Assembly: GCA_964537135.1 (NCBI GenBank)
Contig: CAZHZC010000013.1
Coordinates: forward strand, 2,301 to 66,300
From: an uncultured Rikenella sp.
GTDB taxonomy: Bacteria; Bacteroidota; Bacteroidia; Bacteroidales; VadinHA17
Direction of reading: 5' to 3'
DNA length: 64,000 nucleotides
In this document: one piece after another, positions 5,624 to 58,171 of the stretch
Numbering within the stretch: position 1 is the first letter of the stretch
Layout: each line of letters begins with the position of its first letter
Program-made: the position numbers and the translations under genes
The notes under the pieces: model-generated
Seen by the model: only the letters and a program-made list of their open reading frames with translations
What the model was told of the DNA's origin: nothing
The model's database searches: none

Positions 5624-5917
5624 ATGAACGCGAAGAGATATGAAGAGTATCTTCAGCTCAGGAGATTGACGCAAGAGCTGATCTCCGCGTATGAGAAGCT
5701 GGAGAAGGAGACAGCCGGGTTGAGGGATAACCTGGCAGAGGTGAGGTGGCAGCTGGAGATAAAAAACGAAGAAGTAAAGGTACTTCAGACAAAATATGAA
5801 AGAGCTAAGTTCTCTGGATCGATTCTCGGTAGTGGGGAGGATGCCGTTACGGCCAGGAAGAGAGTGAGTGAACTTGTGCGGGAGATTGATAAATGTATTG
5901 CTCTTTTGGACAGATAA
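5624..5917 (+). CDS. Coiled-coil protein upstream of zapA (ZapB-like, conserved Bacteroidota hypothetical)
   Basis: Heptad-rich sequence, C-terminal RVSELVREIDKCIALL, position directly before zapA. Confidence 0.75.
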   Translation: MNAKRYEEYLQLRRLTQELISAYEKLEKETAGLRDNLAEVRWQLEIKNEEVKVLQTKYERAKFSGSILGSGEDAVTARKRVSELVREIDKCIALLDR

Positions 5918-5927
5918 TTATATAGCA

Positions 5928-6218
5928 ATGGATGATAAGCTATCGATCAGGGTAAACGTGGCCGACAGGTATTATCCGTTAAAAGTGGAGATTGAAAATG
6001 AGGAACGTATCCGCAAGGCAGCCAGAATGATTAACGAAAAGGTGCTGCAATATAAGCAGCGCTATGTTGACAAAGACACCCAGGACTTCCTGGCGATGGC
6101 AGCACTGCAGTACGTGATAAGACTCATTGAGATGGAGGAGAGGGATGATGATCCGTCACTTGAGGAGGGGTTGAGGGAGTTGGCCGGAATGATCGGATCT
6201 GCTCTGTCAAAAAGATAG
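5928..6218 (+). CDS. zapA: Cell division protein ZapA
   Basis: IRVNVADRYYPL..EEERIRKAA..IN..Y....D.QD.LAMAAL pattern. Start set to ATG 5928. Confidence 0.9.
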   Translation: MDDKLSIRVNVADRYYPLKVEIENEERIRKAARMINEKVLQYKQRYVDKDTQDFLAMAALQYVIRLIEMEERDDDPSLEEGLRELAGMIGSALSKR

Positions 6219-6244: not shown

Positions 6245-6447
6245 ACTACCCGCATTGTTTCTTCATTCGTTTTTGGAAACTCAACAATTTGTACTTTGAA
6301 GCAAATCTTGCTCTGGATAGGACAGGCTGCAGCCCGGCTCGCCGGGATCCCGCTTGCGGGACAGCAGAAGCCCGAAACAGAACGGAAGCTTCAGCCATGT
6401 AGATATGGGGTTTTTTAAAAGCTGGAGAAACTCTGCGGGTTTTTTTT
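6245..6447 (+). ncRNA. ssrS: Probable 6S RNA (Bacteroidota type)
   Basis: Lies between zapA and rny, the known 6S position in this phylum. Ends pair: CCCGCA 6249-6254 with TGCGGG 6434-6439, extending to GTTTCT/GGAGAAAC. 3' U-tract at 6440-6447. Boundaries approximate. Confidence 0.7.
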
Positions 6448-6465
6448 AATAATAACAATAATACC

Positions 6466-8022
6466 ATGATCATAGCACAGATACCATTATGGGCCAGCGT
6501 TGCCATTGGTGCAACTGCCTTTATCGCAGGATTAGGATTGTCATTCTTCTTTTGGCAGCTGATCCTGCGTAACCGTAAGAAACGGATTCTAGCTGAGGCT
6601 GAGGCTGAGGCTGAAGTGATAAGAAAGGAGAAAATATTACAGGCAAAGGAGCGGTTCCTGCAGCTTAAGGCTGAACATGAAAAGGTCATCAATGAGCGCA
6701 ATAACCGGATAGGGCAGGCTGAGAACAAGATAAAACAGAGGGAGCTGACCCTCTCACAGAGGCTCGAAGAGGCACAGCGCCGTAAGAATGAGGCTGATGC
6801 CATACGTGAGAACCTGACCCAGCAGATGGGGCTGCTCGATAAACGTTCAGAGGAGGTGTCACGCCTCCACCGCCAGCAGGTGGAGCAGCTGGAAGCTCTC
6901 TCAGGCCTCTCTGCCGATGAGGCGAAAAACCAGCTGATGGAGTCACTCAAGGAGGAGGCTCACTCCAATGCCATCTCATATATCAATGAGATCATTGATG
7001 ATGCCAAGATGACTGCCAGCAAGGAGGCCAAGCGGGTGGTGCTGATGGCTATACAGCGTGTTGCTGCTGAGACCGCCATAGAGAATGCCGTTACCGTTTT
7101 TCATATTGAGAGTGATGATATAAAAGGACGTATCATAGGGCGTGAGGGACGTAATATCAGGGCGCTGGAGGCTGCTACCGGTATTGAGATCATCGTTGAT
7201 GACACACCGGAGGCGATCGTCCTCTCCGGGTTTGATCCGGTACGGCGCGAGGTAGCCAGGCTGGCACTGCATCAGCTGGTCACCGATGGGCGTATCCATC
7301 CGGCACGCATAGAAGAGGTGGTTGACAAGGTACGTAAACAGGTTGAGGAGGAGATTATTGAAACCGGAAAACGGACCGCCATTGACCTTGGCATCATGGG
7401 TCTCCATCCTGAGCTTATCAGGCTGGTGGGCAAGATGAAATACCGCTCATCATACGGACAGAACCTGCTTCAGCACTCACGTGAGGTGGCCAACCTGGCA
7501 TCGGTGATGGCAGCTGAGCTGGGACTCAACCCCAAGCTGGCCAAGAGGGCAGGACTGCTGCACGACATAGGCAAGGTGCCTGATGATGAGCCTGAGATGC
7601 CACACGCCCTGCTGGGGATGAAGCTGGCTGAGAGGTACAAGGAGAAGCCTGAGGTGGTCAATGCTATCGGGTCACACCATGATGAGACGGAGATGACCTC
7701 ACTGCTGGCACCCATAGTGCAGGTGTGTGATGCCATCTCGGGTGCACGCCCCGGAGCACGTCGTGAGGTGGTGGAGTCATATATCAAGCGGCTCAATGAG
7801 CTAGAGTCGGTGGCACTCTCATACCCCGGGGTGACCAAGACCTATGCCATACAGGCCGGCAGGGAGCTGAGGGTGATAGTGGGTGCAGACAAGGTGAGTG
7901 ACCAGGAGACCGAGAAACTTTCATTTGATATAGCACGTAAGATACAGAACGAGATGACCTACCCAGGCCAGATAAAGATCACTGTCATAAGAGAGACCAG
8001 GGCGGTTAATTATGCAAAATAA
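6466..8022 (+). CDS. rny: Ribonuclease Y
   Basis: N-terminal TM, coiled coil, KH domain ([13 protein letters not shown]), HD domain (LLHDIGK). Confidence 0.97.
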
Positions 8023-50741: not shown

Positions 50742-50827
50742 CTTCTGCCTTTCAAAGTGTGAAGATAACAATAGTGTTTGAAGATCATTTCTTAAATTTG
50801 CGTTCCGCCATTTTCAGCAATAATCTG

Positions 50828-52165
50828 ATGAGACCAGTGACAACCATAAGCCGTAAGATAGCCGAGAGTGCAGGGCAGAGTGTCAGAAAAGCGAGAGAGC
50901 GACTGAAGAGGTCACTCCCATGGTGGGTTCGTCAACAGCGTATCACATACCTTCTCTATAAGGGTATAAAGCGTGACAACATCTATATCAAGGCGTCAGC
51001 ACTTACTTTTTTCACCATCCTCTCCCTCATACCGATGATGGCCCTGGCTTTTGGCATAGCCAAGGGCTTTGGACTGCATGAGGAGCTCAGAGCACAGATA
51101 ATCATGCAGTTTCATAACCAGGAGCAGGTGATGAACTGGATACTGGACTTTGCCAATAAAACCCTTGAGCAGACCAGCGGTGGATGGGTGGCAGGCATAG
51201 GGGTAGCCTTTCTCTTCTCAGCGGTGATACAGCTGCTTCGCTATGTTGAGAATGTCTTCAACTCAATCTGGAAGGTTGAGGAGACAAGGGTGTGGTACCG
51301 CCAGATAACCGATTACCTGGCAATGATCATTCTGGTACCTGCCCTGCTGATAGCCTCCAGCAGTGTGACCCTGCTGGCCAATACACGACTCAATGAGGTG
51401 CTCAGCAGCCATTCAGGTGTGCTGGAGACCTTAAGGCCGGCGGTAGCTGTCATTGTAAAGCTGATACCCTATATCCTCCTCTGGACCCTCTCCACGGCTG
51501 CCTACCTGGCAATACCCAATACCAGGGTCAGGTTTAGGGCTGCCCTCCTTGCCGGGCTGGCTGCCGGGGTGGCGCTACAGGTGCTGCAGGTGGTCTATGT
51601 GGTCACACAGGTGGGTATCACCAGGCTGGGAACCCTCTATGGCAGCTTTGCAGCCATACCGCTGCTGATGGTGTGGATACAGATGAGCTGGGTGGCGATG
51701 CTGATGGGGGCACAGCTCTCATATTACCTGCAGAATATTACGAGGCATGAGTTTGAATTTGATGTGCAGAGGGTCTCTCCCAGGCAGAAAAAAAGATTGT
51801 CACTGCTTGTCATGCACTCACTGGTGATCGATTTTATCAAAGGTACCAGGCCCAGGGCACCTGAAGAGATCTCACAGGCACTGAGCCTGCCGGTACGTAC
51901 CGTGCATGAGTGCCTTGACCAGCTGCGTGAAGCATCAATGGTGACTGAGGTGTGGAGTGATGAGACAGAGAGTTACCTCTACCAGCCTGCTACCGACATC
52001 AACAAAATGACTCTGGCATATCTGCTTGAGCAGCTGGACGCTTCGGGCTCTACGCACAAGGTGGTCATCAGGAATTCTGATTACAAAAAGATTGATGCTG
52101 CCCTTACACGGTTTGAGGAGATGGTAGCCTCCTCAGATGGGAATATTCTTTTGAGAGATCTATAG
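50828..52165 (+). CDS. YihY/virulence factor BrkB family membrane protein with C-terminal HTH-like extension
   Basis: ASALTFFTILSLIP, YGSFAAIPLLMVWIQMSW; C-terminal helix-turn-helix-like segment. Confidence 0.88.
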   Translation: MRPVTTISRKIAESAGQSVRKARERLKRSLPWWVRQQRITYLLYKGIKRDNIYIKASALTFFTILSLIPMMALAFGIAKGFGLHEELRAQIIMQFHNQEQVMNWILDFANKTLEQTSGGWVAGIGVAFLFSAVIQLLRYVENVFNSIWKVEETRVWYRQITDYLAMIILVPALLIASSSVTLLANTRLNEVLSSHSGVLETLRPAVAVIVKLIPYILLWTLSTAAYLAIPNTRVRFRAALLAGLAAGVALQVLQVVYVVTQVGITRLGTLYGSFAAIPLLMVWIQMSWVAMLMGAQLSYYLQNITRHEFEFDVQRVSPRQKKRLSLLVMHSLVIDFIKGTRPRAPEEISQALSLPVRTVHECLDQLREASMVTEVWSDETESYLYQPATDINKMTLAYLLEQLDASGSTHKVVIRNSDYKKIDAALTRFEEMVASSDGNILLRDL

Positions 52166-52288: not shown

Positions 52289-52990
52289 TTATTTATTGCG
52301 GAAGGGAGAGAGCCGGAATCGTCTGACATATCTGACCATCTCATCCAGTGAATTCCAGTTGTCAAACAGGTAGTGTGGGGCGTCGACGATAATCTGCCTG
52401 GTCTCAGGGTGCATTGACCAGTAGCTGATCAGGTTTGAGGCCCTGAATATGCGGTCTTCAGAGCCTATCAGGCTGTAGTCCCATACAAACCCGGTATCCA
52501 CCGGCTCCATCATACGGTTGTAGAGCCACCTCAGCTCATCATGCAGTGACTTAATGGTGCGGGTAGGTATGAATGCACGGTTCATCTCAAACCGGCTCTT
52601 GGTGCCGAAGAGTCTCAGGTAGAACTTCGCCATGCTGTAGTTGGAGATATTGTCAAGGGTAGCCTCAAAAATTTTGAGAGGGATGCCATACTTGTCATCG
52701 GCAGCCACCGGTGTGCCGTTAATTGCTATGGTGAGGTCAGGCGTGAGGCCCAGCTTACTGCTGTAGTACTCGGCAGCCCACACCCCCAGTGACCAGCCTA
52801 TGACAGTGACCCGCCGGTAGGTCTTCATCTCAGGCAGTATCAGCGGCTCATCAGCTGAAAAGTTGTAGAAGAGAATAAAATCAAAGTTGTCAGTACACAG
52901 GTTGGAAAAGGATTTCTCGTCAATTCCCCAGGTGCCGAAAAGAATTATAAGATCTCTGTTGTTCTCAAACCTTCTGAGGAACGTTTTCAT
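52289..52990 (-). CDS. DUF452/BioG-type pimeloyl-ACP methyl ester esterase
   Basis: LILFGTWG, nucleophile GWSLG, AINGT, DDKYGIP..IF..T, C-terminal PHY. Confidence 0.8.
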   Translation of the reverse strand: MKTFLRRFENNRDLIILFGTWGIDEKSFSNLCTDNFDFILFYNFSADEPLILPEMKTYRRVTVIGWSLGVWAAEYYSSKLGLTPDLTIAINGTPVAADDKYGIPLKIFEATLDNISNYSMAKFYLRLFGTKSRFEMNRAFIPTRTIKSLHDELRWLYNRMMEPVDTGFVWDYSLIGSEDRIFRASNLISYWSMHPETRQIIVDAPHYLFDNWNSLDEMVRYVRRFRLSPFRNK

Positions 52991-52996
52991 CGGCCA

Positions 52997-53193
52997 TAAT
53001 AAAAGGAAAAAGAGGAGAGGGTTTCTTGTGAGACATTAAGGAACGGGCTTATGAGATAATCCCGGAATCTACTGTCTGATAAAAGGAAGTAACCTATGGT
53101 AGTCAGCCTTAGGTTCATGTGAAAGTCAATGTCTGCAATACAATCCTATTGAATCTCACAAGTAACCCTAACTCTCCTCTTTTATTTCATCGT
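52997..53193 (-). ncRNA. Candidate structured RNA or 5' leader upstream of the bioG-like gene
   Basis: About 26-bp closing stem (53008-53033 with 53154-53183), three internal hairpins plus an inner stem, TATATTTG box at 53199-53206, 3' U-rich tract. Confidence 0.5.
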
Positions 53194-53341
53194 TTCTACA
53201 AATATATTATATAGGACGATACTTTACAAATATTTCAGAGAAATTATACTCTTATTTTTTACGGTTGTTTATTAAATTCTGATTAGCTATTTTTAACCAG
53301 ATTATCACCGTATTTATAATCCTGACATTAACCTGTTTACT

Positions 53342-54190
53342 ATGATTCCCGAGATTATCACCATGAAGCGTGATGATGGATCAGGCTTCCGGGTCTCCTG
53401 GATGGACAGTGAGAGCAGTTTCCTGCATCTTCATCCTGAGTTTGAGATAGTGCTTAACATCACCGGTAATGGTACCCGTGTAGCGGGCACCTCTGTGGAG
53501 TTGTTTGACCGCTATGACCTTGTTATTTTTGGTCCTGAGCTGATGCATTTCTGGAACTTTTACAGGAACAGTGCCTCGGAGAGTGCCTCCCACGCAATAA
53601 TGGTTCATTTCCGGCGCGACTCACTCGGTGATGATCTGCTCTCCCAGTTTGAGTTTACTGCTCTTAACCAGCTGTTTGAGGATGCCTCCAGGGGGATAGC
53701 CTTCCCGTCGGAGACCGGCAGGGCGGCTGAGGAGCCTATGCGACGGCTGCTGGTAGAGAGGGGGATGAGAAAGATGGTCAGTCTCTTCACCCTGCTCGAG
53801 ATCCTCAGTGCGGCACCGGCACGAAAGATATTGTCTGATGCCAACCCCGAAGGGATGAGTACCCTGGCTGACAGCCGGCTGACAGAGGTATGTGCCTATG
53901 TGAGAGAGAATTTTTATCGCCCACTGACAGTCAAGGAGATGGCAGGAGTAGCCAATATGAGTCCGCACTCATTCAGCCGCTACTTCTCACGTAGCACCGG
54001 AAGCGGATTTGTTGACTACGTGAATCAGGTGCGAACCAACAAGGCGTGTTATCTTCTTCGCGAGACAAATAACCAGATCAATGATATAGCTTTTCAGTGC
54101 GGATTTGCCACCGTCTCTAACTTCAACAAGCAGTTCAGGAAACATGCCGGCATGTCTGCACGTGACTACAGGGCACAATACCGCAACTGA
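53342..54190 (+). CDS. AraC family transcriptional regulator
   Basis: Cupin HLHPEFEI; C-terminal double HTH (MSPHSFSRYF, IAFQCGF.TVSNFNKQFRK). Confidence 0.93.
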   Translation: MIPEIITMKRDDGSGFRVSWMDSESSFLHLHPEFEIVLNITGNGTRVAGTSVELFDRYDLVIFGPELMHFWNFYRNSASESASHAIMVHFRRDSLGDDLLSQFEFTALNQLFEDASRGIAFPSETGRAAEEPMRRLLVERGMRKMVSLFTLLEILSAAPARKILSDANPEGMSTLADSRLTEVCAYVRENFYRPLTVKEMAGVANMSPHSFSRYFSRSTGSGFVDYVNQVRTNKACYLLRETNNQINDIAFQCGFATVSNFNKQFRKHAGMSARDYRAQYRN

Positions 54191-54402: not shown

Positions 54403-56220
54403 ATGGGAATGACCATTACCGAGAAAATCATTGCTTCACACTCGAAATATGACAGTGTAAAGCCGGGTGACATAGTTGATATATCCATTGATGCCAGGGT
54501 TGCCAGGGATTTTGGCGGTGCCAATGTCGTCAAAAACCTGAGGGATTTCGGGCTGTCCGTTGATGATCCTGAGAAGACCCTCTTCACCTTCGACTGCAAT
54601 CCTACCGGATCAGACCAGAAGTATGCCGTCAACCAGCATATCTGCCGGCAGTTTGCGCGCAGCCATGGTATCCGTCTATATGATATCAATGCCGGGATCG
54701 GAACCCACCTGCTGATTGAAGAGGGGTATATATGGCCCGGGGCCACCGGCGTCTCTACCGACTCACATGCCAATGTGCTGGGTGCTGTGGGCGCCTTTGG
54801 GCAGGGTATGGGTGATATGGATATAGCTGCTGCATGGAACAGTGGCAGGGTATGGTTCAAGGTACCCCATTCGGTCAGGCTCACCTTCACCGGAGAGATG
54901 CCCTCTAATGTCAATGCCAAGGATGTTATTCTCAACCTGCTGCAGATATATGGCGCCAACACGCTACTTGGCTACAGCATAGAGCTCTATGGTGATGCCG
55001 TTGATCGTATGACGCTGGATGAGCGTATCACCATCGCCTCCATGGCTACCGAGATGGGTGCAATAATTATACTGTTCCCTCCCAGCAAGGAGGTAGTTGA
55101 CTACTGCCGGGCACGTGCACGTGAACCCTTTGAACCGGTATATGCTGATAAGGATGCCAGCTATAAGCTCACCGCAGAGATAGATGTGACCAGATTCGTT
55201 CCTATGGTTGCACGTCCCGGTGAACCACATGATACGGTAGGGGTGAAGGAGCTTACCCGGACCAGAATCGATTCAGCATTCATAGGGAGCTGTACCAACG
55301 GACGGATAGAGGATATGCGTACTGCCGCGGAGATACTGAGAGAGAGGAAGGTGGCGCCGGGGGTGGTGCTCAAGATTGTGCCCTCTACCGATGCGGTATG
55401 GATGCAGTGCCTTGAAGAGGGGCTGATAGATATCTTCAAGCAGGCCGGAGCGCTGGTCTCCAATGCCGGGTGTGCAGGATGCGCTGCCGGACAGGTGGGG
55501 CAGAATGGCCTGGGAGAGGTAACAGTCAGTACCGGCAACCGTAACTTTCCGGGCAAGCAGGGTAAGGGAGAGGTCTTCCTGGCCTCACCGGCAGTGGTGG
55601 CAGCATCAGCCCTGGCCGGATATATCACCACACCTGATGCCATACCGGCAACACCGCCGGAGGTACTGTTTGAGACAGCCGTAACGGAGAGTGCGGCAGC
55701 ACCCAAAGAGGTGAAGGCAGAGAAGAAGCCTGTGGTGATAAGAGGAAGGGTATGGCTGATCGAAAGGGACAATATCGATACCGACATGATATTCCATAAC
55801 CGCTATCTGGCAATAACTGACATCAACGAGATGGGACAGTACACCTTTGACAACCTGAAAGGTTATGAAGATTTTGCCAGGAGGGCCAAACCGGGTGACA
55901 TCATAGTAACAGGTAAGAACTTCGGGAGCGGCAGCTCACGCCAGCAGGCAGTAGACTGCTTTGTGGCACTTGGAGTACAGGCTGTTATAGCACAGTCTTT
56001 TGGAGCCATTTATGAACGTAATGCAATCAATGCTGCCTTCCCGGTGATGACCTACAACGCGCTGGCGGGCATAGAGCTTAAGGACCAGGACATAATCTCC
56101 GTCAATCTGCTTACCGGTGAGGTGACCAATGAGCGTAACGGACTAACCACTTCAATTAATCCGTTCTATGACGCTCAGTATGACATCTATAACAGGGGCG
56201 GACTGCTGGGAAGAATCTAA
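54403..56220 (+). CDS. Aconitase-family [4Fe-4S] hydro-lyase, LeuC-like large subunit fused to LeuD-like swivel domain, with atypical motifs
   Basis: GSCTNGR and GCAGC cluster ligands; NIDTD and NFGSGSSRQQA swivel motifs; DH replaced by DC. Confidence 0.88.
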   Translation: MGMTITEKIIASHSKYDSVKPGDIVDISIDARVARDFGGANVVKNLRDFGLSVDDPEKTLFTFDCNPTGSDQKYAVNQHICRQFARSHGIRLYDINAGIGTHLLIEEGYIWPGATGVSTDSHANVLGAVGAFGQGMGDMDIAAAWNSGRVWFKVPHSVRLTFTGEMPSNVNAKDVILNLLQIYGANTLLGYSIELYGDAVDRMTLDERITIASMATEMGAIIILFPPSKEVVDYCRARAREPFEPVYADKDASYKLTAEIDVTRFVPMVARPGEPHDTVGVKELTRTRIDSAFIGSCTNGRIEDMRTAAEILRERKVAPGVVLKIVPSTDAVWMQCLEEGLIDIFKQAGALVSNAGCAGCAAGQVGQNGLGEVTVSTGNRNFPGKQGKGEVFLASPAVVAASALAGYITTPDAIPATPPEVLFETAVTESAAAPKEVKAEKKPVVIRGRVWLIERDNIDTDMIFHNRYLAITDINEMGQYTFDNLKGYEDFARRAKPGDIIVTGKNFGSGSSRQQAVDCFVALGVQAVIAQSFGAIYERNAINAAFPVMTYNALAGIELKDQDIISVNLLTGEVTNERNGLTTSINPFYDAQYDIYNRGGLLGRI

Positions 56221-56236
56221 ATAACCGATACCGGAT

Positions 56237-58012
56237 ATGAAACCAAGAACATTTGTTGAAAAGATACTGGGAGCCCCTGAGGGGGCGGTAGTCTTCAGGA
56301 AGCCTGACCTGATACTGACGCATGACAACACTGCAAGCATCTTCCAGACCTTCCGCAAGATGGGAGGCGAAAAGGTGGCTGATCCCGGCCAGATGGTGAT
56401 AGTGCTTGATCACAATGCCCCGCCTACAGATGCCAAGATTGCCTCTCAGTACCAGGATATCAGGAACATAGTAACCAATCAGGGTATTGACAAGTTTTAC
56501 GACTCCGGCACCGGCATCTGTCATCAGATGATGGCCGGTCACGCCAGGCCGGGAATGGTTATTGTCGGTTCAGACAGCCACACCTGTACTGCCGGCGCCT
56601 TCAATGCGCTGGCTGCAGGTATAGACCGTACTGAGGCAGCAGGTATCTGGAAGAGGGGAGAGACCTGGTTCCTGGTACCACCCTCAATGCGCATTGACCT
56701 TACCGGCAGCCTGCGTCCCGGTGTCAGCGCCAAGGATCTCTCACTATGGATTATAGGTATCCTGGGGTCAGACGGTGCCAACTACATGTCAATTGAGTTT
56801 CATGGTGACGGCGTCAGTTCACTCAATATCAGTGACCGCATGACGGTGGCCAACCTCGCCTCCGAGATGGGAGCCAAGAATGCTGTCTTCCCCGCTGACC
56901 AGGTGCTCTTTAACTATCTGGGTGAAGAGATACCCGGTATATGGGCTGATGAGGAGGCTGAGTATGCCTGCCGCATCTCCATCAACCTGAATGATGTCTT
57001 TCCCCTGGTGGCGGCACCACACCATGTTGACAATATCAGATCGGTAGCCTCGGTAGCGGGCACAGCCGTTCAGGAGGGTCTTATCGGCACCTGTACCAAC
57101 GGACGCATAGAAGATCTCAGGGCTGCCGCAGAGGTGTTGATCGGCAAAAAGGTGAAGGAGGGCTTTCAGCTACATATTATCCCCGCATCGCGGGAGATCT
57201 ACCTGCAGGCTATCAGGGAAGGTATCATTACCGGGCTGATAGAGTCAGGAGCCAACATACTCAGTCCGAGCTGCGGCCCCTGCCTCGGCACCGGGCAGGG
57301 GATACCTGCCAGCGGCCATACGGTTATCTCCACCGCCAACCGCAACTTCCTGGGCAGGATGGGTAACAAGGAGGCCTCCATATACCTGGCCTCACCGGCT
57401 ACGGTGGCCGCCTCAGCCCTCAGCGGGGTGATCACTGACCCGAGGCAGGAGGGAGGCAGTGAGCAGTTTCCCTTCCGGCGACCGCAGAGCAAGACCAGCC
57501 TCATCGGAGAGGGTGAGCAGAGAAGGATCGGCAATGTATGGAACTATGCTGATGTGGATAATCTCAATACTGACCAGATGTTTGCAGGCAAGCACACCTA
57601 CAGCGTGCTCAGCTCTGACGCCGCAGCAATCATTCCGCTGCTCTTCAGCGACTTCGATCCGGCCTTCAGCACCACCGCCCACGAGGGAGATATTATCATG
57701 GCAGGTGATAACTTCGGATGTGGCAGCTCACGTGAGCACCCTGCGGTGGGACTGGCACACCTGGGTATCAGGGCAGTGATAATCAAATCTGTGAACCGCA
57801 TATTCTACCGGTCGGCAATCAACCAGGGGCTTCCGCTGATCGTTCACCGTGAGGCGGTAGAGGCATGGCAGCCGGGAGAGAGCGTAGAGGTTAACTTTGA
57901 TAAGGGCTCCTTAAAGGTGGGGGAGAGAAGGTTTGAGTTTGAACCTCTTCCCGCACAGCTGAAAGAGATAATCGAGAAGAGAGGGCTGGTCAACTGGATG
58001 AAGAGTGTGTGA
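56237..58012 (+). CDS. Aconitase-family [4Fe-4S] hydro-lyase, LeuC-LeuD fusion (3-isopropylmalate dehydratase/homoaconitase-like)
   Basis: THDNT, LDHNAP, GICHQ, SDSHT, GTCTNGR, SCGPC, STANRNF; NLNTD and NFGCGSSREH. Confidence 0.9.
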   Translation: MKPRTFVEKILGAPEGAVVFRKPDLILTHDNTASIFQTFRKMGGEKVADPGQMVIVLDHNAPPTDAKIASQYQDIRNIVTNQGIDKFYDSGTGICHQMMAGHARPGMVIVGSDSHTCTAGAFNALAAGIDRTEAAGIWKRGETWFLVPPSMRIDLTGSLRPGVSAKDLSLWIIGILGSDGANYMSIEFHGDGVSSLNISDRMTVANLASEMGAKNAVFPADQVLFNYLGEEIPGIWADEEAEYACRISINLNDVFPLVAAPHHVDNIRSVASVAGTAVQEGLIGTCTNGRIEDLRAAAEVLIGKKVKEGFQLHIIPASREIYLQAIREGIITGLIESGANILSPSCGPCLGTGQGIPASGHTVISTANRNFLGRMGNKEASIYLASPATVAASALSGVITDPRQEGGSEQFPFRRPQSKTSLIGEGEQRRIGNVWNYADVDNLNTDQMFAGKHTYSVLSSDAAAIIPLLFSDFDPAFSTTAHEGDIIMAGDNFGCGSSREHPAVGLAHLGIRAVIIKSVNRIFYRSAINQGLPLIVHREAVEAWQPGESVEVNFDKGSLKVGERRFEFEPLPAQLKEIIEKRGLVNWMKSV

Positions 58013-58094: not shown

Positions 58095-58171
58095 GGTTCC
58101 GTAGCTCAGTTGGATAGAGCAACAGCCTTCTAAGCTGTGGGTCGAGCGTTCGAGTCGCTCCGGAATCACCA
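58095..58171 (+). tRNA. tRNA-Arg (anticodon TCT)
   Basis: Acceptor stem GGTTCCG/CGGAATC, anticodon arm ACAGC-CTTCTAA-GCTGT, GTTCGA T-loop, encoded CCA; TATCTTTG box at 58062-58069. Confidence 0.97.

Follow-up and report, generated by a model that had tools for sequence, protein, structure and literature searches.

A structured RNA element beside a bioG-family esterase gene in uncultured environmental Bacteroidales

What is the structured element housed in the divergent gap between a bioG-family esterase gene (minus strand) and a gene for an AraC-type regulator (plus strand) in the genome of an uncultured Rikenella sp.? The gap lies within a stretch of 64,000 nucleotides that was analysed at its full length and is called the window here. 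An earlier note, made from the letters of the window, had described the element as highly structured and had offered two readings, an independent sRNA or a cis-regulatory leader of the bioG-like gene. We set out below its fold, conservation, distribution and occurrence in RNA libraries, and weigh the two readings together with known RNA families and mobile repeats.

Promoter, fold and architecture of the element

The long inverted repeat reported for the element (53008-53033 with 53154-53183) is real. It consists of two pairs of arms, one of 16 nt with 94% identity (53018-53033/53154-53169) and one of 12 nt with 100% identity (53008-53019/53172-53183), and the 26-mer arm has a single site in the window when up to three mismatches are allowed, with none expected from 100 shuffles. 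Folding of the minus strand gives -60.6 kcal/mol (z -4.17, 0 of 200 shuffles equally good) and folding of the plus strand -58.7 kcal/mol (z -2.84, 2 of 200 shuffles equally good). The G-U pairs, G-U being the commonest pair at one position of the genus alignment, favour the minus strand as the RNA strand, in agreement with the initial assignment. The covariance-model match in the window spans 53003-53188 on this same strand (214 bits).

Bacteroidetes promoters follow the consensus TTTG / TAnnTTTG. According to a published study, a different primary sigma factor is in use in these bacteria (PMC7366714). The promoter box proposed just 5' of the element, TATATTTG, has the expected form and is kept throughout the aligned genus rows (Table 1); outside the genus, a perfect TAnnTTTG lies 10-28 nt before the start of the covariance-model match in 19 of 19 loci. 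From the promoter geometry, the 5' end of the RNA would fall near 53192, and the U5 run together with the end of one contig would place the 3' end near 53007. The U-rich tract that had been seen after the stem is likewise present, and a U-rich tail is found in 63 of 63 family sequences. The ATG of bioG, at 52990, follows 17 nt past the stem and 10-16 nt past the U tracts. The minimal AUG-AAA-UAA reading frame noticed at the 5' end does exist (53189..53181, minus strand) and is not conserved outside the genus.

Pairing in the closing stem and hairpins is preserved among relatives. In the genus alignment, 98.9% of the cells of the closing stem and two hairpins are paired and four pairs are changed on both sides; the compensatory changes in P1b are C-G/U-A, U-A/C-G and G-C/A-U. 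In the family alignment, which is model-fitted (93 sequences, 87 distinct) and leans towards the covariance model, 91.0% of cells are paired, versus 77.9% after shuffling and 44-57% with slid partners. Double changes are present in 33 of its 36 pairs, with the 'change' in the outermost helix being partly a register shift. RNAalifold applied to a MAFFT alignment of 63 sequences returned almost no structure, with the arms out of register, and the model-fitted alignment was used for this reason.

The helices vary and the strands that join them do not. The conserved part of Block 2 across 63 diverse sequences is UUAUCAGACAGUAGA with its flanks, surrounded by varying helices, and the motif CAGACAnUnGA is common to Block 1 and Block 2. 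P2 is longer in most other genera and carries a GCCA loop there. Among the 87 distinct sequences, each with both anchors, the middle domain forms one hairpin whose stem varies. Based on the conserved blocks, the varying helices, the middle-domain folds and the pair changes, the element has the architecture of a three-way junction whose two long joining strands are invariant. Blocks 1 and 2 are predicted to be single-stranded, their invariance removing the covariation signal; the first AGGA of Block 1 (53147..53144) is able to pair with UCCU at 53042..53039. The four inner hairpins that had been drawn from the letters are all present in this sequence, and two of them hold up in the alignments: the AACCTA/TAGGTT hairpin is backed by compensatory changes, and the CGGGATTAT/ATAAGCCCG hairpin is conserved and covaries at the family level. 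The two others do not. The T of the CAATA/TATTG hairpin is replaced by A, C or G without a matching change on the other side, and the CATTGA/TTAATG stem is peculiar to the window, most relatives having two mismatches in it.

Several further pairings and reading frames were considered and discarded. Relatives do not keep the pairing of an 8-bp stem, GACAUUGA/UUAAUGUC. By eye, a pairing of GGAUUGUAUUG (Block 1) with CAGUAGAUUCC (Block 2) loses its outer pairs uncompensated in the largest other genus, an alternative pairing of GUGAAA in the 5' arm with UUUCAC in Block 1 is missing in one genus, and a GUG-started frame through Block 1 is kept neither in length nor in presence. A 43-aa ORF (52987-53118, minus strand) runs across nucleotides that hardly vary, which speaks for constraint on the RNA rather than on a coding sequence.

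Table 1. Positions of the features discussed, with the evidence for each
Feature	Position	Strand	Evidence or remark
6S-like locus	~6250-6446	+	6S-Flavo 33.2 bits (E 0.006); Bacteroidales-1 19.5 bits; sub-threshold
bioG-family esterase gene	52289-52990	-	PF04301, Pfam 1.3e-32
U-rich tract U5-CC-U4, terminator-like	53001..53011	-	sequence; one RNA-library contig stops at 53007
Structured RNA, predicted extent	53007..53192	-	covariance-model match, RNA-library contigs, G-U pairs
Closing stem P1a/P1b, 3' strand	53008..53033	-	inverted repeat and genus/family pairing
P3 hairpin CGGGAUUAU-CUC-AUAAGCCCG	53044..53064	-	kept in genus; double changes (C-G/G-C, others) in family
Block 2 CCUUUUAUCAGACAGUAGAUU, invariant 3' junction strand	53066..53086	-	UUAUCAGACAGUA invariant in 63 sequences
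P2 hairpin, AACCUA/UAGGUU stem	53090..53116	-	compensatory changes in genus
Block 1 AGGAUUGUAUUGCAGACAUUGACUUUCACA, invariant 5' junction strand	53118..53147	-	invariant or almost so in 63 diverse family sequences
P1b, 5' strand	53154..53169	-	partner 53018-53033; compensatory changes in genus and family
P1a, 5' strand AAAAGAGGAGAG	53172..53183	-	partner 53008-53019; all 9 pairs invariant in genus
-7 box TATATTTG (TAnnTTTG)	53199..53206	-	kept as TA(T/C)ATTTG in 30/30 aligned genus rows
-33 box TTTG	53227..53230	-	sequence; 20 nt upstream of -7 box; GCAAA/CAAA column kept in genus relatives
AraC-type regulator gene	53342-54190	+	ORF adjoining the gap
Composite RNA-like units of relatives (L207, L210-L213, L215; genomes G317, G318)	~1900-2250 of ~4-kb loci		three sites in L210

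Some features of the surroundings are recorded here in their own right. A 10-nt direct repeat, ATAAAAGGAA, occurs at 52999-53008 and 53079-53088; read on the RNA strand as UUCCUUUUAU, it has one copy in Block 2 and one just before the bioG start. The repeat is not preserved letter for letter in relatives and is probably due to chance. Convergent with bioG lies a gene for a BrkB/YihY-family membrane protein (50759-52165, plus strand) with a C-terminal extension of about 140 aa, and a convergent ORF of about 445 aa follows bioG in most of the 19 other-genus loci, as judged from ORF sizes, Pfam having been run on the window's protein alone. On the other side, two tandem ORFs of about 600 aa (54403-56220 and 56237-58012, plus strand) are followed by a tRNA (58095-58168); in relatives, the equivalent gene codes for one protein that matches the large and small aconitase domains, fused together.

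Conservation, RNA-library contigs and shorter siblings

Searched at gathering scores against Rfam 15, the whole window yields the tRNA and nothing else. Within 52900-53400, a search at E <= 10 returns five weak, chance-level matches, the best at 20 bits versus a gathering score of 50, and at E <= 0.1 nothing is found in a full-length relative (L209) or in four loci with short elements. A literature search found no paper on the RNA, the term 'bioG' also catching 'biogas' and similar words. By these comparisons the RNA family appears to be absent from Rfam 15 and is, to that extent, uncatalogued, consistent with the initial impression that it resembles no recognised riboswitch. An Rfam match and a dispersed MITE-like repeat were among the outcomes that would have counted against the earlier note; both were looked for and neither occurred.

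The element is conserved far better than its neighbours. Using blastn, one syntenic copy is detected in 34 of 36 genus genomes and none in 24 genomes from 24 other families. Across the 29 genus loci fetched, identity is 89.5-96.8% for the element, 70.3-82.0% for bioG DNA and 66.3-74.3% for araC, and the 150-nt spacer beside the element has a detectable match in none of them. A covariance model built from the genus (R1) matches 99 of 150 family genomes, distributed over 9 of 20 genera, nearly always with one full-length match per genome and with 70-118 bits outside the genus. An order-wide draw of 150 other genomes gives a single match, in the same family, and 0 of 149 outside it. Between genera, BioG proteins are only 46-60% identical to that of the window, and Blocks 1 and 2 are unchanged. 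A 22-nt motif of the RNA has exact matches in more than 121 stretches of public genomes; among the matches listed, almost all carriers are uncultured environmental Bacteroidales MAGs, some of them labelled Rikenellaceae or Rikenella by the depositors. As far as genome comparison can tell, the RNA is accessory and specific to one clade.

Five runs labelled RNA (the label of one being a guess), from sludge and sediment, match part of a 1.9-kb stretch, and four of these were compared to the window. In one run (X2), the sole contig is 152 nt long and covers 53021-53172 with 0 differences to the window at a depth of 93. A run from another study (X4) has a 143-nt contig over 53007-53146 with 6 differences at a depth of 685. 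A third (X1) contains 38 short contigs within 53018-53179, one at a depth of 11,700, and its only bioG contig (371 nt, 52625-52995) has a depth of 4.09; such contig depths are a rough measure of level, from libraries that can contain DNA, and the contigs carry neither strand nor true ends. Adapter-joined contig ends fall at 53018-53020, 53043, 53060 and 53179. Contigs consisting of the element alone come from two studies, as would be expected of the discrete product that had been proposed. Positions 53185-54190 (in four runs) and most of bioG lack contig cover, which we count as no evidence. Contaminating DNA would be expected to cover the flanks of the same organism equally. We read the contig pattern as that of a discrete, apparently very abundant RNA.

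Block 1 also occurs outside the full-length element. Some relatives carry short RNAs of about 85-105 nt in which a GC-rich stem and a U-run enclose the Block 1 core, and the 22-nt core is identical in full-length and short forms. In one 5.1-Mb genome there are 10 copies of the core (up to 2 mismatches), namely the full-length element before bioG and nine others, most of which are composites of about 200 nt with a second stem-plus-U-run domain. In these composite units, the Block 1 core is flanked by the arms of the first stem, GGCGACAC/GUGUCGCC, and a U-run comes after this stem; the second conserved domain is closed by GAGGCGGUACU/AGUACCGCCUC and again followed by a U-run. The genes downstream of the short elements are diverse; among them are two for SusC-like receptors, one for a hemerythrin, one for a non-specific endonuclease and some unknowns. 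A viral contig (IMG/VR, 71.6 kb) has a short GC-rich hairpin (L220, 1465-1546, plus strand) whose loop contains the Block 1 core; on the same contig, a Block 2-like CAGACAGUA is fused directly to UUGCAGACAUUGACUUUCAC. The window's own genome has no short Block 1 element.

A stand-alone RNA, a leader of bioG, a 6S RNA or a mobile repeat

On balance, we lean towards a stand-alone sRNA gene of about 175-185 nt on the minus strand, folding into the three-way junction and acting in trans through its invariant strands. Transcription would start about 7 nt past the -33/-7 promoter (TTTG / TATATTTG) and end in the U-run after a closing stem of about 28 bp. The transcript is predicted to fold into the closing stem P1, the variable hairpin P2 and the small hairpin P3, with Block 1 (about 26-30 nt) and Block 2 (about 20 nt) as joining strands, both invariant across nine genera, and it would accumulate as a discrete, apparently very abundant species. 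Its exposed invariant strands may bind a conserved cellular partner, more likely a protein, with the RNA as decoy or scaffold, than an mRNA seed target. This preference comes from the length of the blocks and from a crude test in which no complementary targets were found: a duplex scan of 3,158 crude putative start regions gives no excess (for Block 1, 176 sites at or below -16 kcal/mol, with shuffles at 119-242), and the own genome contains no non-self 13-mer antisense match to Block 1. Block 1 may be a portable recognition module that is also displayed on shorter sibling RNAs, and read-through into bioG would be a by-product or a secondary cis role rather than the main function.

The main rival, which keeps a cis or functional link to bioG alive and which we judge unlikely, is a cis-acting leader (riboswitch, attenuator or antitermination) that sets read-through from a strong promoter into the bioG-family gene; the abundant RNA would then be the terminated leader. 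Gene order speaks for it. The RNA lies directly upstream of, and co-oriented with, the BioG-family gene in the whole genus, and this gene is the next co-oriented one in 19 of 19 other-genus loci. The upstream neighbours are of several kinds (AraC-type regulator 8, aconitase-like 4, peptidase C69 3, cyclophilin 1, no family 2; counted over 17 loci, with two candidate upstream ORFs from one). BioG was found in 104 of 150 family genomes, which belong to exactly the nine RNA-bearing genera, and in 0 of 41 genomes of the other 11 genera, where the RNA is also missing. Related genomes are not independent, so a cassette gained only once may account for this shared distribution. Two genomes (G274 and G217) have BioG without the RNA, which speaks against a leader. 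Some other BioG genes lie at contig edges, and one such case yielded a cut 3' half of the RNA.

The spacing between RNA and gene bears on both readings. In this genus only, the gap from U tract to ATG is 10-16 nt, too small for a promoter box, so any bioG mRNA must begin as read-through of the RNA and bioG would here be transcribed through it. In the other genera, however, 9 of 19 RNA-to-bioG spacers contain a perfect sense-strand TAnnTTTG of their own (antisense 0; shuffles mean 1.36, maximum 5), and 18 of 19 have a -7 box if one mismatch is allowed. A gene with no promoter between it and the RNA, as a riboswitch would call for, is found in the window and not in most of the other genera. Among the further Block 1 copies in loci taken from G317 and G318, nine have an ORF of 110 aa or more within the retrieved flank, and each of these nine is co-oriented with it, yet a perfect promoter box for the next gene follows five of nine short elements.

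The invariant junction core with its variable, covarying helices is riboswitch-like, but a closing stem of about 28 bp would be hard for a ligand to switch, and by eye no conserved alternative pairing is seen. BioG is the only linked gene, and searches of the own genome, which is 95.9% complete, found no BioB, bioD (TIGR00347) or BioY (PF02632). Its sole BATS-domain protein (489 aa; L206, G000:C9:61000-79000) has a TM1266-like hydrogenase regulator and an Fe-hydrogenase-like sensor kinase as neighbours. These are of the hydrogenase-maturation type, and the protein is therefore probably HydG, not BioB. The BioG-family esterase thus looks orphaned from biotin synthesis, and biotin sensing would have little to act on. 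With no biotin pathway found and with bioG having its own promoter in most other genera, a biotin riboswitch is disfavoured. Between the two readings offered at the outset, the sRNA is the better one, given the RNA's own promoter, the bioG promoters elsewhere and the biotin pathway not found.

In a reading that we consider very improbable, the RNA would be a second 6S-like RNA, peculiar to this lineage, which mimics an open promoter and thereby binds RNA polymerase holoenzyme. Like 6S RNA (RF00013, RF01685, RF01693), it is about 180 nt long, joins its 5' and 3' ends in a long stem, exists as one full-length copy per genome and reaches high depth in RNA libraries; its large conserved strands around a terminal hairpin are predicted to be unpaired. 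Covariation supports the closing stem and the hairpin, and the would-be bubble strands of 26 and about 20 nt, with an extra hairpin, are invariant and give no such signal. In E. coli, ssrS follows zapA and precedes ygfA; the position of the bioG-linked RNA just upstream of a co-oriented metabolic gene recalls that of ssrS before ygfA. A 6S RNA has been validated in Bacteroides thetaiotaomicron (PMC7366714). The Rfam 6S models miss this validated RNA in the control genome, and further 6S candidates were therefore sought. At our element, RF00013, RF01685 and RF01693 give no match even at E <= 10.

In the own genome, RF00013 and RF01685 have no match at E <= 1, and the sole match of RF01693 (Bacteroidales-1, annotated by Rfam as '6S-Bacteroidales suggested') is at 6256-6446 on the plus strand of the window. 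This locus, with its long closing stem and U8 tail, sits between zapA (5868-6218) and the RNase Y gene rny (6466-8022). By blastn it is present in 15 of 20 genera (124 of 150 family genomes), and in six of these 15 the bioG-linked RNA is missing. The sequence from 6250 to 6446 is likely to be the 6S RNA of the organism. The 6S slot would then be taken, leaving the bioG-linked RNA as a clade-specific accessory, and we reject the 6S identity of the latter in favour of the zapA-rny locus. Its distribution (9 of 20 genera, versus 15 of 20 for the zapA-linked locus) is not that of a housekeeping RNA, and, unlike in 6S RNA, its short paralogs contain just one of the two 'bubble' strands.

For the full-length element, the idea of a MITE or similar dispersed mobile repeat, with terminal inverted repeats that only look like an RNA stem, is virtually untenable: a long near-perfect terminal inverted repeat does surround about 120 nt, and short elements with Block 1 are multi-copy in some genomes and present on a viral contig, but the 210-nt stretch has one copy in its own 3.08-Mb genome (with no second Block 1 at up to 5 mismatches in 24 nt or Block 2 at up to 4 in 23 nt on either strand), lies at the same syntenic site in all of the 29 genus loci and all of the 19 loci from other genera, keeps its pairs by compensatory changes and has its own promoter, the single copy number and fixed synteny being what refutes the repeat.

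A possible RNA system of one Bacteroidales clade

Returning to the sRNA acting in trans, we tentatively put forward a broader reading, possible rather than probable, in which the element belongs to an undescribed RNA system of one environmental Bacteroidales clade. More specifically, an invariant module of about 24 nt, GUAUUGCAGACAUUGACUUUCAC, would be displayed in the hairpin loops or junctions of abundant RNAs and would serve to recruit or titrate a conserved factor, for example RNA polymerase, a nuclease or some other RNA-binding protein. One three-way-junction form would be fixed beside the orphan BioG-family esterase, with up to about nine short forms beside diverse genes and one more on a viral contig. 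RNA and esterase would be gained and lost together and work as a pair.

Known systems share parts of this picture. The raiA motif RNA is an ornate RNA of about 200 nt with its own promoter and terminator, a kept neighbour gene and high abundance. The bioG-linked RNA is alike in its ornate fold, its length of about 200 nt, its promoter and terminator, its neighbour gene and its abundance, and differs in its taxa (uncultured environmental Bacteroidales), in having no Rfam match and in the reuse of a junction strand in shorter RNAs. Vibrio Qrr1-5 are a sibling family of sRNAs with an invariant shared stretch; here too, a conserved stretch of about 25-30 nt is common to paralogs with differing scaffolds, at 1 to 10 copies per genome, whereas no complementary targets were found and the full-length form, folded as a three-way junction, has another invariant strand as well. 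We know of no chaperone context in Bacteroidetes for an RNA of this kind. Orphan riboswitch candidates (e.g., the nadA motif) share with our element an invariant core at the junction, helices that covary and a single gene family kept downstream; unlike them, it has a promoter between RNA and gene in most genera, a cofactor pathway that was not found, and a very long closing stem that is the terminator itself.

New here are the evidence from RNA libraries, the bioG promoters distinct from that of the RNA, the biotin pathway that was not found, the 6S-like locus elsewhere in the window and the short paralogs. They spare follow-up effort on the element as a biotin riboswitch, which is unlikely, as a 6S RNA or as a MITE, and they place the likely true 6S RNA of the lineage next to zapA. 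To our knowledge, Bacteroidetes are without Hfq, ProQ and CsrA, and what is known of RNA biology in them comes almost solely from gut Bacteroides. In the present clade, strands of 26-30 nt and about 20 nt are unchanged across nine genera in which the neighbouring proteins are only about half identical. The apparent abundance of the RNA, its unchanged strands and the reuse of one of them point to a strongly constrained, undescribed molecular contact.
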